A DNA stretch of 36,618 nucleotides from IMG/VR virus record IMGVR_UViG_2602041909_000007; one strand, given 5' to 3'. Both the position numbers and the translations under genes were made by a program. Below the pieces are notes generated by a model. The model worked only from the letters and a program-made list of their open reading frames with translations, ran no database searches and was not told the origin of the DNA. This DNA comes from a virus. Lineage: Duplodnaviria; Heunggongvirae; Uroviricota; Caudoviricetes. Positions 21,381 through 36,618 of this stretch are shown one piece after another (positions within the stretch are counted from its first letter, which is position 1; every line of letters starts with the position of its first letter).

Positions 21381-21574
21381 CTGAATTAACCCGCTGATAA
21401 AAATTAAACTGGCGTTATTTAACGGAGAAATAAAAATGTCGTCATCTGATTAATTTCCGGTACTTTCGGATATGCGTATATATCCGAAAAATACCGAAAA
21501 GCGATATTCGTTTTTAAAAAAGCCTTTGCTGAAAATGCATAAATTAAAATTGCATCAGCAGGTGAGGTTTATTT
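21381..21574. promoter_or_regulatory. Divergent late promoter region between scaffold (O) and terminase (P) with a large inverted repeat
   Basis: AT-rich 194-bp intergenic region; near-perfect palindrome TTTCGGATAT-gcgtat-ATATCCGAAA at ~21454-21479 (extended ~21449-21485). Confidence 0.5.
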
Positions 21575-26876: not shown

Positions 26877-29631
26877 TTCTACTGGTCAGGCCACCCCGCA
26901 GCAGGTCTGCTTTGCGGCGGGCGCGTTCAGTTGTTTCACTGATTCTCTGTGCGTGCTCTGCGTCACGGATGGCGCGCAGCATGTCAGAAAGCACGGTAAC
27001 GGGGGTTTTCATGGTGTTCTGGTCCTGCTGAAGTGTGGATGCCAGACGTGCGGCGGCTTCGGGGTCTGATGCCCCCAGCTGTGCCAGATAGCTGGCGACC
27101 GGGTTATGGCGGATCTCCGTGCTGCTTACGCCGTGATTACGGCTCAGGTGCTGCCAGAGCTGCGTGATTCGGCTGTCCGGGCGGGTATCCGGTTTGCGTA
27201 CAATTTCAAATCCCTGTGGTGCAATGATGCTGCCGTCAACGTACAGGCTGCCGCCCCGTAACAGGTGCTGCATCTGCTGTTCACCGATATGCAGGCCGAG
27301 AGATTCGGCAGATTCCCGCCATTCTTTAGCGAGTAATTCGTGGTTATCAGGCAAAGGCCGTGGCTGTTTGCGGCTCTGTGTCCAGTTCTGCATTTCATCA
27401 CTGCTGTTTTTTGCCTGCTTGTCACGCAGCGAACGCATCAGAGCCCGGCGTTCGTGCCGTTTCAGTGAGCGCATCCATTCGTTCACTTCAACGCCGTCAG
27501 GGAGCTGCGGCCACGGTGCTGGCCGTTCTTTCGGCTGTTCTGTCCCGTTGTTGTCCGTTTCCTGTACACGGGGACAGTTATTGCCACGAGTCCAAGGGGC
27601 GGCAGGGCCGCCCTGAAGGTCAAAACCATTTTCGCGGGCGCTGTCTTCCGCTTCCGGTTTACGTCTTACCAGCTTCCAGTTATCCGGATGTGTGCACACA
27701 CGGGAAGACTCCCCGATGAGTGGTGACCAGATCCCGTAAATCTGTACGCTCTGTTCGCCGTAATCGTTCAGCTCATCTGCGAGGTCGTAGGCGGTGCGAA
27801 TCAGGTAGTCTTTGCGTGGAACAAGTACGCCGCCCTGTTTTTCAATGTAGGAGGCAAAACACCCGGCATCAGCGGCAGCGAGCACTGCATCCATTGCGTC
27901 ATCCTTCAGCCGTTGCGGGCCTTCCGGGTTGCGTGCCATCTGGCTGGCAAGGCGGCGCAGTTCACGCCACACCTGACGGGAGGGGATGCCAAAGAACTGG
28001 AACTGGCGGACCCGGTGAAGGCGCGCCCAGCCGATGGCGCGCTCCACGCTCTCGGCCATTGATTTTCCGGTTTCGTGGTCAACGCGTGGCTTGCCCGTTT
28101 TCGGGTCGATACCATCCACGGCGCGGCTGTCCAGGTTCTTTCCGATGTAGGTGGCGATGTAGCTGGTTGGCGTGCCTTTTGAGCCGTCGACGTACTCCGC
28201 TTTAAAACGCGGAGTTATGTCATCGCCCAGCTCGTGGCGGTCTTCCTGAATGGCAATATCGCAGACGTGGGACACGATGGTTTCAATCTCGTCCGGATGT
28301 GCAAAGACCATCATATGCCAGTGCACAGTGCCGTCATGGTGAGGCTCCACCGTGCGGATGCCATACCAGCGAAGACCGTCGCGGTTCAGTTTTTTGCGGA
28401 CCGCCGCAAAAAACGTGTTAACCAGGTAATCGCTGGAGTCGCGCATGGTGGCCCCGTTCCATTTGGGATTCGGATGACCGTTCTCCGTTGTTGCGTGGTA
28501 TTTTGACGGGCAGGTGACAGTCAGAAACACCGCTCTGTCGCCACGGGCTTCGGCCAGAAGTTCCAGCCCCTTCATGGTGGCCATCATTTCTGCCTTACGG
28601 TGAACCGGGTTACTTACTCCCGCGTAATACACCGTCTCGAGATCAATCGTGAACCCGTCTTCATTTTCCAGCATGAAACTTTTCAGGAAATCGCGTGTTT
28701 TCTCGCGCTGTGCGCGAAACTCGCTTAATGCGTCCTGGCTCAGATAGGGCGATGTTTTTCTGGAAACCAGACAGGCGGCGCGGAGTTGTTCTTCTCTCCA
28801 CTCGCAACGTAACAGCCACAGTTTGCGTTTCCACCATTCCGCACAGGTCAGGCGAAGGACTGCGCCCGGCAGCAGCTCCGTGTCCGGTTCGTTCCTCCGG
28901 TCTTTATCTGTTGTCAGTGCGTCATAATGTGGAGGCATGATGTGCAGGTGTAACGCCATGCGGGCCAGCATCTGATACGTCTTCAGCGTTACATCCATGG
29001 TCAGTTCGCCATCGGTCGCGCCAAAGCCATCGCAGAGTTTTTCGAAGGTGCTGCTGAACATCGCCGCCGTCATGGTGGCCAGCGTCTGTATCTGGTGTTT
29101 GTTGAGCTGCGGCAGGTAAAGCAAATCGTCCAGGCGTTCGCGTCCGGCAAGGGAGCGATAACCCGGTGTCAGCCAGCGTCCGTCAGTGCGATCCAGACGT
29201 TCGAATATTTTGCGCAGGGTTCCGCGTGCATAGCGTTCCGCCTGCCAGCTCTTTTTGCCTTTCCGGCGATCGGCTTCCTGTTTTTTGCGCAGGAAGGAGA
29301 GGTGGCGAATAAGCGGATCGCGCAGATAGGACGGCAGCAGGCGCAGCGAGGCCATGGCTTCATCCACCGCGCCGCGTGCCTGTTTTCTGGCGTCTCCTGC
29401 CAGTGTGATGGTTTTGTCCTGTTTTTCCTGTGCATCCAGGCTTTTATTAATCAGGTTGCCCAGCGGCGTGGCGGAGAACGCCGCATCAGCCTTTTCCTGT
29501 CGGCGCTCGTTCTCTGCCCGGTAGGCATCCAGCCAGGAGGAAAGCGCGGATTCAGGTGCGGGGATCCCCGTTCCTTCACGCCCCACTGCGTGGCGCGGTT
29601 GTTGCCAGTCCCTGATGTACTCTGTCGTCAT
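26809..29631 (-). CDS. A: Replication initiation endonuclease (P2 gpA-like HUH rolling-circle initiator, 940 aa)
   Basis: HUH-type motif TVHWHMMVF and catalytic-Tyr region TSYIATYIGKNLD; position in early operon upstream of head genes as in P2; ~180 aa longer than P2 gpA. Confidence 0.8.
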   Translation of the reverse strand: MTTEYIRDWQQPRHAVGREGTGIPAPESALSSWLDAYRAENERRQEKADAAFSATPLGNLINKSLDAQEKQDKTITLAGDARKQARGAVDEAMASLRLLPSYLRDPLIRHLSFLRKKQEADRRKGKKSWQAERYARGTLRKIFERLDRTDGRWLTPGYRSLAGRERLDDLLYLPQLNKHQIQTLATMTAAMFSSTFEKLCDGFGATDGELTMDVTLKTYQMLARMALHLHIMPPHYDALTTDKDRRNEPDTELLPGAVLRLTCAEWWKRKLWLLRCEWREEQLRAACLVSRKTSPYLSQDALSEFRAQREKTRDFLKSFMLENEDGFTIDLETVYYAGVSNPVHRKAEMMATMKGLELLAEARGDRAVFLTVTCPSKYHATTENGHPNPKWNGATMRDSSDYLVNTFFAAVRKKLNRDGLRWYGIRTVEPHHDGTVHWHMMVFAHPDEIETIVSHVCDIAIQEDRHELGDDITPRFKAEYVDGSKGTPTSYIATYIGKNLDSRAVDGIDPKTGKPRVDHETGKSMAESVERAIGWARLHRVRQFQFFGIPSRQVWRELRRLASQMARNPEGPQRLKDDAMDAVLAAADAGCFASYIEKQGGVLVPRKDYLIRTAYDLADELNDYGEQSVQIYGIWSPLIGESSRVCTHPDNWKLVRRKPEAEDSARENGFDLQGGPAAPWTRGNNCPRVQETDNNGTEQPKERPAPWPQLPDGVEVNEWMRSLKRHERRALMRSLRDKQAKNSSDEMQNWTQSRKQPRPLPDNHELLAKEWRESAESLGLHIGEQQMQHLLRGGSLYVDGSIIAPQGFEIVRKPDTRPDSRITQLWQHLSRNHGVSSTEIRHNPVASYLAQLGASDPEAAARLASTLQQDQNTMKTPVTVLSDMLRAIRDAEHAQRISETTERARRKADLLRGGLTSRNKKQTETGFTNPVNEQKTRRDI

Positions 29632-31370: not shown

Positions 31371-31699
31371 TACATTTCCTTAACCTGGAAGGCCTGCACC
31401 ATTTGGTGCAGGCGGTACATGGTGCGAAAACGCGGGCGGGTGCGACTGGTGTCAGTTTCGCGTCCGTTAACGCGGTTCAGCCAGCCGTAGCCGTACCAGC
31501 GATTGGCAATCCATACTTCAACGACGTTGTCGTTGTGATGAAAAATCGCGTTGTGCTCATTCGTTGCGACGAGAACGCCTTCATTCAGTAGCTGCTGTAG
31601 CTCTGCATCCCATGAAGGGTTGAATTGGTAGACATAAAAGCCACTTGCGCTTTTCAGAATGTGACTCATCAGAGTCATGCGGTATTTCAGTTTCCCCAT
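31370..31699 (-). CDS. Hypothetical early protein (~110 aa)
   Basis: Start set at internal ATG 31699 (MGKLKY...) to avoid overlap with upstream gene. Confidence 0.4.
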   Translation of the reverse strand: MGKLKYRMTLMSHILKSASGFYVYQFNPSWDAELQQLLNEGVLVATNEHNAIFHHNDNVVEVWIANRWYGYGWLNRVNGRETDTSRTRPRFRTMYRLHQMVQAFQVKEM

Positions 31700-34582: not shown

Positions 34583-35110
34583 TTATGATAAATCGCTCTC
34601 GTGATCTCTGCGTTTTTCCAGTTTTGAACTTCTACCCATATAAACCCGTTTTCCGTTAACGGTCTGGCAATCTTCTTTGTCGACTGGTGCGAACTTTCTT
34701 TTCTGGCGGTCATACGTCCAGTAACTTTTCCAGTTGTGCCATTCCGGGGGTTCGCACTCTGGTAGCTCATCAGCCAACTTGTCCCACTCTTTGGCGTTAA
34801 ACCACCATACGCCGTCTGAGTTTTCATCTTCCGGGTTTGTGCGCGTCTTGTGTCCCGGCATTTGACCGCGATGAATGGCTACGCGCAGTGCAGATTTTGT
34901 TAGCCCAATATATGCCGCGCCTTTTTCCAGAGAGCAAAGCCCGGCGATCGGACCATCCAGCCGCAAAGTCGCTCCTTTTTTGTAGGAACGCTTTTTCTTG
35001 TTTTCTTCGTGCTCGTCGTCGTTGGCGGCATCAATGGATCCGCTGAGTGCGTCACTTTCCTGAAGTGGTTGGTGGTCAGATAACTCTTTATCGGCAATGA
35101 AGTCCCGCAT
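34583..35110 (-). CDS. Cox/Apl-like excisionase-regulator with acidic N-terminal extension (175 aa)
   Basis: Divergent from repressor gene; HTH segment LEKGAAYIGLTKSALRVAIHRGQMP and GVWWFNAKEWDKL resemble P2 Cox (…KSTGAVRRMIDKGKLP…EYWVYLPAWNNGL); start codon uncertain. Confidence 0.45.
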   Translation of the reverse strand: MRDFIADKELSDHQPLQESDALSGSIDAANDDEHEENKKKRSYKKGATLRLDGPIAGLCSLEKGAAYIGLTKSALRVAIHRGQMPGHKTRTNPEDENSDGVWWFNAKEWDKLADELPECEPPEWHNWKSYWTYDRQKRKFAPVDKEDCQTVNGKRVYMGRSSKLEKRRDHESDLS

Positions 35111-35169
35111 TTGTTATCCTCTTGCGTTGGTGCGCTTGTCGCGCCTTGTGATGGTTTGTTTTGGCTTGT

Positions 35170-35226
35170 AAAGATAACCAAAAGGTTATCTTTGTGCGAG
35201 AGGTTAATACTCAAATGGTTATCTTG
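35170..35226. promoter_or_regulatory. Candidate repressor operator: perfect 10-bp inverted repeat plus third direct half-site at repressor start codon
   Basis: AAAGATAACC-aaaa-GGTTATCTTT at 35170-35193; GGTTATCTTG at 35217-35226 overlapping ATG of C-like gene; located in divergent cox/C intergenic region. Confidence 0.5.
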
Positions 35227-35556
35227 TCAATAGACTACGCAAAAAAGTTACGTCAGATACGTAAGGCGGAAGGGTTAACACAAAAGCAGTTTGCGGATAT
35301 TACTGGGTTGTCTTTGGCAACCATAAGGAATTACGAATCGGGGCAAAAGAACGCTAGAGCAAAAATCGTTGAGGCGGTTCTGCAAGTCGATCGCTTTGAA
35401 AAATACATGCTGTGGCTAATAAAAGATAAGACGCTACCTGTCGCCGGGCAGATTGCTCCGGCTCTCTCTCTTGATGGATCTATTCAGTCGGAGGGCGATC
35501 AGGTTTCAATCGGTATTACCCAAAAATCACCCCGATCAGGCCGCAATGTTGGCTGA
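35215..35556 (+). CDS. C: Immunity repressor, P2 C-type HTH (XRE-like) (113 aa)
   Basis: HTH LTQKQFADITGLSLATIRNYESGQ; C-terminal KYMLWLIKDKTLPVAGQIAPALS resembles P2 C (KYTLWFMTNQIAPESGQIAPALA) as recalled; start set at ATG 35215. Confidence 0.75.
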   Translation: MVILSIDYAKKLRQIRKAEGLTQKQFADITGLSLATIRNYESGQKNARAKIVEAVLQVDRFEKYMLWLIKDKTLPVAGQIAPALSLDGSIQSEGDQVSIGITQKSPRSGRNVG

Positions 35557-35625
35557 CTCTACACATTGAGCGAATTACATATCGCAAGGAGTGTTTAGTT
35601 AATTTATCCGTTGGAGGGGCTAATC

Positions 35626-36618
35626 ATGTCGATTAAGCAACTCAAAGACGGACGTTATCAGGTCGATGTCAGACCGCAGGGGGCGGAAGGAAAGCGGATT
35701 CGAAAAATCTTTGCCCTGAAATCAAAGGCTCAGGAGTTTGAGAAGTATGTGTTACAGAACTTTCATGACAAGCCATGGCAGGCTAAGCCAGCTGATCAGC
35801 GGCGATTATCAGAGCTGCTTGATGCGTGGTGGATGCTTGATGGGCGTAATCAGGCTTACGGGGATAGCTACAGGGTTAGGCTAGGGAAGGTTGTTCGTGA
35901 AATGGGAGATCCTCGCGCCAGTCAGATGACGCGAAAATTTATGCTTGAATATCGGTCAGAGAAATTACAGGCCGGATTAATGCCGTCCAGTATTAATCGT
36001 GACTTATGCGTACTGTCTACCATGTTCACGGTGCTGATTGAAGCTGAGGTCTTTCACAACGCGAACCCTGTACGCGGTATACGAAAACTGAAAGTTCAGA
36101 ACACAGAGATGGCCTTTCTTTCTGATGATGAGATTGAACGGCTTCTTGAGCGACTGGAGGGTGATGCGCGTCGTGTTGCCATTCTGTGTCTTTCTACTGG
36201 TGCCCGATGGAGTGAAGCATCGGAACTACGTGGAGAGCATATCGTTGGCAACCGGGTGACGTTCTTTAACACCAAAAACGGAAAATCCCGTTCGGTTCCT
36301 GTGGCGGATTCGGTCGTGCCTCTGATTAAAACCCGTCGAACGGGGTTATTGTATCAGGTTGATTATCTGAAGTTCCGGGAGATTCTTCAGGAGGTGAAAC
36401 CGGATTTGCCGAAGGGGCAGGCTACGCATGTCATGCGTCATACATTTGCCACACACTTTATGATGAATGGCGGAAATATTGTTACGTTGCAACGAATCCT
36501 GGGGCACGCAACGATTCAGCAAACAATGACGTACGCTCATTTTTCGCCGGACTTTTTACTGGACGCGATCAACTTTAATCCGCTGGCTGAAAGTGTCCAT
36601 AAACTGTCCATCGATTAG
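35626..36618 (+). CDS. int: Tyrosine integrase, P2 Int family (330 aa)
   Basis: MSIKQLKDGRYQVDVRP… and catalytic region ATHVMRHTFATHFMMNGGNIVTLQRILGHATIQQTMTYAHF closely resemble P2 Int (MAIKKLDDGRYEVDIRP…LRHSFATHFMINGGSIITLQRILGHTRIEQTMVYAHF); ATG 35626 preceded by GGAGGGG SD. Confidence 0.9.
   Translation: MSIKQLKDGRYQVDVRPQGAEGKRIRKIFALKSKAQEFEKYVLQNFHDKPWQAKPADQRRLSELLDAWWMLDGRNQAYGDSYRVRLGKVVREMGDPRASQMTRKFMLEYRSEKLQAGLMPSSINRDLCVLSTMFTVLIEAEVFHNANPVRGIRKLKVQNTEMAFLSDDEIERLLERLEGDARRVAILCLSTGARWSEASELRGEHIVGNRVTFFNTKNGKSRSVPVADSVVPLIKTRRTGLLYQVDYLKFREILQEVKPDLPKGQATHVMRHTFATHFMMNGGNIVTLQRILGHATIQQTMTYAHFSPDFLLDAINFNPLAESVHKLSID

Follow-up and report, generated by a model that had tools for sequence, protein, structure and literature searches.

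Putative palindromic operators of the C repressor in the P2-type C/Cox switch of an Escherichia coli prophage

Three copies of one 10-bp word in the spacer between the opposed cox and C genes of a P2-like prophage very probably represent putative operators of the C immunity repressor. The window (the whole stretch of DNA analyzed, 36,618 nucleotides; IMG/VR record IMGVR_UViG_2602041909_000007) carries two of these words as a perfect inverted repeat and the third over the start of the C gene. Comparison with related prophages makes it likely, taking the explanation as a whole, that the three words would be operators of a P2-type C protein that acts on a predicted Pe promoter. The window is well supported as a heteroimmune member of the P2-type C/Cox face-to-face switch, in which the putative operators follow the O1/O2 arrangement of WPhi in a palindromic form.

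The flanking genes, which the initial annotation had called cox-like and C-like, are borne out by the matches to Phage_Cox (minus strand) and HTH_3, and an integrase gene lies beyond C:

34583–35110, minus strand: Cox-family protein, 175 aa, first gene of the early operon (Pfam PF10743 Phage_Cox; RefSeq "Cox family DNA-binding protein")
35215–35556, plus strand: C-type immunity repressor, 113 aa, HTH_3 (phrog_147; matches to WPhi C, P2 C and 2XCJ/2L49)
35626–36618, plus strand: tyrosine integrase of the lysogenic operon, encoded downstream of C (Int_N, Phage_integrase)

P2 has the same int-C/cox gene order, and in the window a spacer of 104 bp (35111–35214) lies between C and the opposed Cox-family gene. 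The repressor is 50.6% identical to WPhi C (residues 10–96) and 35.5% identical to P2 C, and it matches the solved P2 C structure (PDB 2XCJ/2L49) with E=1e-14. Its Shine-Dalgarno sequence, GAGAGG, is at 35198–35203. The window is an E. coli P2-like prophage and a heteroimmune sibling of PhiECO5 in strain UTI89. Its regulatory region is present in 324 of 5426 complete E. coli genomes and the operator segment in 283 of the 5426, at an identity of at least 99% in 255 of these 283. The prophage class is frequent in human isolates.

A repeat search placed the words exactly where the initial annotation had put the palindrome and the third half-site. The left arm AAAGATAACC, the spacer aaaa (35180–35183) and the right arm GGTTATCTTT form a perfect 10+10 inverted repeat, and the first G of the third word is shared with the ATG of C (35215–35217). 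The same search revealed a direct repeat of 19 nt, ATAACCAAAAGGTTATCTT and ATACTCAAATGGTTATCTT, at 33-bp spacing and with 84% identity over the 19 nt; therefore, a weak left half is also present at the second site. The putative operator elements are as follows:

35170–35193, unstranded: distal operator (site 1), the 24-bp perfect dyad AAAGATAACC-aaaa-GGTTATCTTT, at approximately +3 to +26 of the predicted Pe transcript
35170–35179, unstranded: extra inverted arm AAAGATAACC, which co-varies with the C type and not with the Cox type
35184–35193, minus strand: right arm GGTTATCTTT, reading AAAGATAACC on the Pe strand; candidate O2-equivalent downstream of the Pe −10 (from the repeats and the analogy to WPhi/P2 O2, PMC1904268)
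35217–35226, minus strand: third half-site GGTTATCTTG, reading CAAGATAACC on the Pe strand; candidate O1-equivalent in the Pe spacer, abutting the −35 and covering C codons 1–4
35203–35212, unstranded: degenerate left half of the proximal operator, GTTAATACTC, with inner ATACTC versus ATAACC, 4/6 (from the direct repeat)

The GTTAATACTC left half is constrained by its overlap with the Pe −10 and by the spacing to the C ribosome-binding site. In the related locus L014, the ATACTC word is the full palindrome arm.

Across the 36.6 kb of the window, there are three exact matches to the 9-mer GGTTATCTT, all of them inside 35171–35225; the two direct copies are at 35184 and 35217, 33 bp apart and on either side of the predicted Pe −10. 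When one mismatch is allowed, the window holds 11 matches versus 5.8 expected, and only the exact GGTTATCTT cluster is therefore meaningful. The motif-family (best 8-mer) score of the 142-bp region was reached by none of 40 shuffles. This score is significant for immunity types A and B (described below) but discriminates poorly in many other classes, and therefore a dedicated inverted-repeat score with control windows was used together with word tables. Perfect inverted repeats as such, whose arms measure 10 bp or more around a spacer of 8 bp or less, number eight in the window versus 0.33 expected from Markov simulations; hence, the signal that departs from chance is the palindrome together with the third copy and their position. 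A fourth near-copy, GTTATCCT (35113–35120), was dismissed as an operator, because all immunity types carry it unchanged and because it overlaps the ribosome-binding site of cox. A terminator role of the dyad was also rejected, its stem being AT-rich and devoid of a T-run whichever strand is read.

The assignment of the words to C is based on sibling immunity types, identified among 60 distinct C-upstream regions from divergent E. coli prophages and IMG/VR loci. Three of the types share a spacer architecture that is identical base for base, with words of different sequence at the same positions and the direct copies 32–34 bp apart:

Type A (window, L002, L014–16): dyad AAAGATAACC-n4-GGTTATCTTT; word over the ATG, ATGGTTATCTTG
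Type B (UTI89 PhiECO5, L001, L004, L005, L020–26): dyad TCTTCACC-n4-GGTGAAGA; word over the ATG, ATGGTGAACATG
Type C (L003, L029): dyad aATGTCG-n6-CGACACT; word over the ATG, ATGAATTCGACACTG

The segment aligned to the P2 C recognition helix (LSLATIRNYE in A, VSVGTIGNYE in B and IPVNTQRYYE in C) switches together with the half-site word. Residues 2–4 at the N-terminus of C vary (VIL, VNM, NSTL) because they are encoded by the operator. The Cox type follows a different course: the window, with words of type A, has a Cox protein that shares 91% identity with a type B Cox, and L002 (type A) and L003 (type C) carry nearly identical Cox proteins. With a recombination boundary at about 35168, the segment 35111–35168 tracks the Cox type, and the sequence from the left arm of the palindrome rightwards tracks C. 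This C/Cox modularity is strong evidence, at the level of sequence, that all three words, the inverted arm included, belong to the C repressor. The proposal in the initial annotation that these are repressor operators gains from the same comparison, since the three-site layout is kept in heteroimmune relatives and the words track the recognition helix and not the Cox type. Conservation in homologous immunity regions, which the annotation had named as a check, takes the form of a layout kept in at least three sibling immunity types with differing words (GGTTATCTT, GGTGAAGA and CGACACT).

PhiECO5 is a sibling prophage that has been described before. Its C protein (WP_000247830.1, type B) is 73% identical to that of the window, its long Cox is 91% identical (determined via L001, which has the same Cox accession as UTI89), and the three-site layout is common to both. 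Its half-site word, GGTGAAGA, is unlike that of the window, and the two phages are presumably heteroimmune. Immunity classes I–VII were reportedly defined by Karlsson et al. in 2006. PhiECO5 is placed in the tentative immunity class IX by Nilsson et al. 2011 (PMC3448106). In the accessible literature, no operator description was found for the class of the window or for the sibling class IX.

A sigma-70 promoter scan of 34900–35700 returned no site. A position weight matrix (PWM) scan was checked against the annotated Pe promoters of P2 and WPhi; it recovers the P2 Pe elements (TTGACA-17-TAGTAT) and, within the annotated promoter feature, the WPhi Pe (TTGACA-17-TATATT). The best minus-strand match in the window is TTGACA-18-TAACCT, a predicted Pe directed away from C:

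35225–35230, minus strand: predicted Pe −35, TTGACA, in C codons 4–6 (top PWM match)
35201–35206, minus strand: predicted Pe −10, TAACCT, with an 18-bp spacer (PWM)
35204–35209, minus strand: alternative predicted Pe −10, TATTAA, with a 15-bp spacer (PWM)

Either predicted −10 overlaps or abuts the C Shine-Dalgarno sequence. At the equivalent place, the scan finds TTGACA-18-TAACCT in type A, with TATCCT in type B and TAAAAT in type C at the −10, and there are also matches in Chuche and P884B11. The TTGACA −35 is invariant in six aligned variants despite its location in codons 4–6; the sibling type L025 has TTGACG. As to the positions of Pe and Pc relative to the sites, which the initial annotation had suggested mapping, the PWM scan gives a predicted Pe that overlaps them but only two candidates for Pc, both weak: TCGGCA-18-TATCCT (35091/35115), which mirrors the layout of Pe, and TTGTGA-18-AAAGAT (35146/35170).

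These data suggest a mechanism along the following lines. Pe would be read from the minus strand, with the −35 at 35230–35225, the −10 at 35206–35201 and a start near 35195. The third half-site would correspond to O1, positioned beside the −35 within the Pe spacer. The palindrome's right arm, covering about +3 to +12, would correspond to O2, and the left arm would be an additional inverted copy. The proximal operator (35203–35226), composed of the perfect right half GGTTATCTTG and the degenerate left half, would fill the Pe spacer such that bound C excludes RNA polymerase. The distal dyad (35170–35193), just downstream of the Pe start, would block promoter escape or elongation and would probably nucleate C binding. 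With their centers 33 bp apart, i.e., about three helical turns, the two dyads would lie on the same face of the DNA, which may allow cooperative binding and DNA bending; cooperative binding with DNA bending has been proposed for WPhi and P2. C codons 2–4 would double as operator bases. At high repressor levels, occupied sites might in addition hinder read-through from Pc into C, a negative autoregulation of the kind known for P2.

With respect to stoichiometry, the structure paper on P2 C points out that a symmetric dimer resembling palindrome binders must read direct repeats, and its model places one dimer at each half-site, with one specific and one non-specific monomer (PMC2995052). The layout in the window fits this model naturally, with a distal site that is fully symmetric and a proximal site that is half-symmetric. 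The preferred reading of the sequences is one C dimer per dyad: both monomers would bind specifically at the distal site and one of them at the proximal site. Alternatively, each 10-bp word could bind its own C dimer, three in all, in which case the palindrome would consist of two adjacent dimer sites 14 bp apart. The P2 model, with its one dimer per half-site (PMC2995052), speaks for this alternative, as does C.Esp1396I, a small HTH dimer with a structure like that of P2 C that, as cited in PMC2995052, is autoregulating and binds cooperatively to neighboring dyads as two dimers 15 bp apart, center to center. C.Esp1396I belongs to a restriction-modification system. The type A variants retain an invariant G-nn-TATCTTT, and their outer cores, TATCTT and AAGATA, are 16 bp apart center to center. 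This distance, also in favor of separate dimers, is long for a compact P2 C-like dimer with recognition helices 26 Å apart (PMC2995052). On the other hand, the invariant core of type B, CTTCACC-n4-GGTGAAG, has its arms 11 bp apart center to center, and the arm distances across classes are mostly 9–12 bp, which is typical of a single HTH dimer in adjacent major grooves. Moreover, dimers 14 bp apart would likely clash unless the DNA is strongly distorted. We regard three separate dimers as an unlikely arrangement and prefer one dimer per dyad.

The dyad might also have its main role in RNA. The inverted arm would then chiefly form a stem-loop at the 5′ end of the Pe transcript or in the Pc leader, for example stabilizing the mRNA or causing pausing between convergent promoters, and C would bind the two direct copies alone, which is the situation in WPhi. 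The RNA of the dyad does fold stably on either strand (−12.2 and −16 kcal/mol, z about −4.6), and the predicted Pe −10 is 7–9 nt from the dyad in types A, B and C, which would start the stem at about +1 to +3. In the WPhi clade, an immunity-independent dyad, xAAAAGGT-N12-ACCTTTTx, encloses O2 at about +1 of Pe, and the outer pairs of this stem co-vary (score 0.112 versus 0.049 in shuffles, reached by none of 500 shuffles). L014 and L021 have compensatory changes in both arms that keep the complementarity and lose the match to the third half-site, which is what a hairpin constraint would also produce; however, templated mutation in quasi-palindromes can give paired changes without selection on RNA. 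Against a primary role in RNA, the arm in every case has the reverse-complement sequence of the operator word of its own class, a relation that follows directly from a protein site. Furthermore, the palindromes of Chuche, L049 and P884B11 precede the Pe start, being located in the Pe spacer, and are therefore absent from Pe RNA. An Rfam search gave one match only (E=0.39), far below the gathering score and outside the operator region. A mainly RNA-level function is accordingly quite improbable in our judgment.

Roles as a DNA operator and as an RNA stem are mutually compatible. It is conceivable, if rather unlikely, that the distal dyad has a dual use, in DNA as a high-affinity symmetric C site and in RNA as a stem-loop at the 5′ end of the early transcript. 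Were this true, a dyad at +1 of Pe would be a conserved design feature of P2-type switches, with an immunity-independent stem around O2 in the WPhi clade and a stem built from the operator word in the clade of the window. The "direct-repeat" operators of P2 and WPhi would then be degenerate dyads, and the class of the window would offer a natural substrate for studying how a symmetric C dimer reads DNA.

The initial annotation saw in the third half-site a means of autoregulation through a site that covers the initiation region of the repressor itself. This is not the best reading, since the site fills the Pe spacer beside the conserved TTGACA. The third site does cover the ATG and codons 2–4, Pc transcripts must read through both sites, and P2 C is reported to down-regulate itself at high concentration (PMC3448106). 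Nevertheless, the same position is that of the Pe spacer, and in P2 and WPhi, repression of Pe requires the corresponding O1, which is situated between the −35 and the −10 of this promoter (PMC1904263). In addition, C belongs to the DNA-binding HTH proteins, and there is no hint that it binds mRNA. The overlap with the ATG arises because Pe sits on the C start in compact face-to-face switches of the P2 type. From the sequence, the third site appears to be primarily a Pe operator and not an initiation-region autoregulatory device, a primary function that we consider very unlikely; by analogy, some negative autoregulation through a roadblock to Pc transcripts is plausible.

Next to the palindrome is an array that may belong to Cox:

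35136–35169, plus strand: four TTGT repeats with an exact 10-bp period, putative Cox boxes in the Pc region, abutting the palindrome

The phased array is unique in the window (0 of 100 shuffles), and its segment co-varies with the Cox type. Cox and Apl sites are helically phased direct repeats (PMC7498355), and by analogy the TTGT repeats can be taken as putative Cox boxes. Cox was rejected as the binder of the palindrome, its type being uncoupled from the half-site word. Despite the adjoining TTGT repeats, we give almost no credence to a palindrome bound by the Cox-family protein or a host factor, or to a chance repeat: the words track the C type independently of the Cox type, and chance is excluded by three exact copies and by a layout conserved across several heteroimmune classes.

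How the window compares with known switches depends on which feature is considered. The operators of P2, P2 Hy dis and WPhi have been described as two direct repeats (PMC1904268, PMC2995052), with half-sites of 8, 8 and 10 bp that are 22, 26 and 34 bp apart center to center, respectively (PMC1904268); one repeat lies on each side of the Pe −10 in P2 and WPhi (PMC1904268). The annotation in the P2 record places the Pe −35 (TTGACA) over the start codon of C, with O1 in the spacer and O2 downstream, and in WPhi, TTGACA abuts the C ATG and O1 (TATTGGTGAC) is in the Pe spacer (PMC1904263). The window resembles WPhi in having a homologous repressor, 10-bp half-sites about three turns apart (33 bp versus 34 bp) that flank the Pe −10, O1 in the Pe spacer, TTGACA at the C start, face-to-face promoters and a C-int operon opposite cox. 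It differs in the half-site word (GGTTATCTT versus GTCACCAATA in WPhi), in the perfect 24-bp dyad at the distal site, in the O1-equivalent inside C codons 1–4, in a C-terminal extension of C by about 15 aa, and in the length of Cox (175 aa versus 91 aa). WPhi itself has a partial dyad at O1, AGTCACC-aata-GGTTACT (a 6/7 quasi-palindrome), and its O2 is in the loop of an immunity-independent stem. With P2, the window shares the protein family and the design of the switch, including TTGACA overlapping the C start and half-sites that flank the Pe −10. However, two turns separate the P2 sites, for which a non-palindromic sequence is described (PMC2995052), as opposed to one perfect palindrome and three turns in the window; the perfect 10+10 inverted repeat at 35170–35193 does not agree with a description as "non-palindromic direct repeats". 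This mismatch bears on the description of the operator and not on the homology of the switch.

The claim in the initial annotation that the layout differs from the direct-repeat-only operators of P2 is therefore correct in part. The literature does describe direct repeats, but the direct pair reproduces the O1/O2 geometry of WPhi. Only the additional inverted arm differs from WPhi, of which O1 is itself a quasi-palindrome, and this arm is without counterpart in the published "direct repeat" description of P2 and WPhi.

As in the arrangement proposed for the window, the lambdoid, 434 and P22 c2 repressors and 186 CI are HTH dimers on inverted repeats. The 186 CI repressor is an unrelated two-domain protein of about 190 aa that recognizes inverted repeats and is found together with cII and pE. 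A switch of this type was rejected for the window, where the repressor is a single-domain P2 C homologue of 113 aa and the early genes begin with one of the Cox type; only the inverted repeat resembles 186. P2 C superimposes on P22 c2 (PMC2995052). Unlike the lambdoid switches, the window has predicted promoters that are face to face and not back to back, C and Cox share no operators, the words follow C only, and tandem sites in the style of OR1–3 are lacking. Its C protein also has no RecA-cleavable or oligomerizing C-terminal domain, in contrast to lambdoid-type repressors.

Inverted arms also occur elsewhere in the C family:

Chuche: TTTCTCAtaTGAGAAA over the ATG and TTTCTAAgtTGAGAAA, 24 bp apart
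L049: ATCTCC-n4-GGAGAT, twice, 29 bp apart
P884B11: TGCC-n6-GGCA, twice, 31–32 bp apart
L025, L037 and Salmonella L093: one dyad and one arm-like copy (copies in L037 and L093 identified by eye), about 29–35 bp apart

The arms of the listed dyads are 8–16 bp apart center to center, mostly 9–12 bp. A scan of genome contigs with a single protein gave one relevant locus, Salmonella L093, which has a similar layout. Short-spacer inverted repeats scoring at least 8 are present in 37.5% of 32 representative C-upstream sequences, several of which are variants of one class, versus 3.3% of control windows. Judged by these sequences, the inverted arm is not unusual within the wider C family. Since short-spacer dyads are found in many C classes and WPhi O1 is a quasi-palindrome, a "direct-repeat-only" description does not capture these operators in full.

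P2 C is known from textbooks as an odd case, being a symmetric HTH dimer that is said to read non-palindromic direct repeats. Here, a common class of E. coli prophages has a repressor homologous to P2 C and an operator with a perfect dyad and one half-site. The evidence for this variant is good, and it is a rather ordinary form of a genetic switch that is already known, not a new kind of system; its relevance is moderate for those who work on P2 and low otherwise. In practical terms, its value is modest: the words predict the immunity specificity of widespread P2-like prophages and supply orthogonal repressor/operator parts. For the biology of the family, the sibling classes constitute naturally co-varying repressor/operator pairs with which the questions of one dimer per dyad, the C–DNA complex and the specificity of the recognition helix may be addressed.

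The immunity region of this prophage is a mosaic. In the comparison of prophages (loci L001-L005), the Cox gene and the left spacer assort independently of the C gene and its operator words. The breakpoint lies between 35111-35168 and 35169-35226, directly left of the palindrome, i.e., the 24-bp dyad that constitutes the putative distal C operator. The relevant features in the window are:

34583-35110, minus strand, Cox-family protein of 175 aa
35136-35169, plus strand, four TTGT repeats with an exact 10-bp period, GCTTGTCGCG CCTTGTGATG GTTTGTTTTG GCTTGT
35506-35556, C-terminal extension of the C repressor, approximately 15 aa (ending in SIGITQKSPRSGRNVG)

The Cox protein is 175 aa long compared with 91 aa in P2, and the Pfam Cox domain spans only residues 58-129. 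The remainder includes an acidic N-terminal extension of approximately 55 residues and a basic C-terminal tail, both of which differ among prophages. The TTGT repeats adjoin the palindrome and are located within the spacer segment that tracks the Cox type. The 10-bp-phased pattern occurs once in the window and in none of 100 shuffles. These repeats are probably Cox boxes, positioned over or near Pc, the promoter for C and int.

On the other side of the breakpoint, positions 35215-35232 are dual-coded: an operator half-site is embedded in C codons 1-4, while codons 4-6 carry the -35 element (TTGACA) of the predicted early promoter Pe. Across three immunity types, the operator-bearing codons 1-4 translate as MVIL, MVNM, or MNSTL. 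Hence, the N-terminal residues of C vary with immunity specificity because its first codons also carry an operator half-site. At the other end of the protein, the C-terminal extension has no counterpart in P2 C or WPhi C. The sibling immunity types A-C keep it, and repressors of the Chuche and P884B11 classes have a shorter form. The C-terminus of P2 C is disordered and dispensable (PMC2995052).

Seven more perfect inverted repeats, with short loops between arms of 10-13 bp, lie elsewhere in the prophage; several are GC-rich and terminator-like in appearance:

1479-1506
1560-1583
14539-14570
19383-19404
21464-21489
28389-28414
31392-31413

Symmetric elements are also present upstream of C in other classes:

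L006 (WPhi) 1821-1791, conserved dyad xAAAAGGT-N12-ACCTTTTx
L006 (WPhi) 1781-1764, O1 quasi-palindrome AGTCACC-aata-GGTTACT, 6/7 matching
L007 (P2), roughly 67 to 42 bp upstream of the C ATG, inverted repeat TTTAGTGCC-n8-AGCACTAAA

The first of these surrounds the O2 half-site, begins at approximately Pe +1, and recurs roughly 65 to 35 bp upstream of the C ATG in other loci (L035, L040, L041, L042, L045, L046, L047, L054, L084, L086, and L090). The core sequence does not change between heteroimmune classes, and the outer pairs show covariation (C-G to G-C), with a score of 0.112 vs 0.049 for shuffled sequences, a value reached in none of 500 shuffles. This dyad is not repressor-specific; in the early mRNA it may form a stem-loop at the 5′ end.

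GTCACCAATA, published as the "direct repeat" at WPhi O1, makes up the left portion of the quasi-palindrome, and L042 has a distal site that reads GGTTACC-aatt-GATAACC. These two sites suggest that the WPhi class, too, has 18-bp dyad operators. The P2 inverted repeat is on the Pe transcript downstream of O2, and its arms include the CTAAA(C) core of ATCTAAAC, the word found at O1/O2. In L040, the region roughly 64 to 6 bp upstream of the C ATG seems to hold two bipartite sites, GGTTAC-n5-AGTGAC, that are mutually inverted. A direct-repeat pair is apparently not shared by the whole C family.
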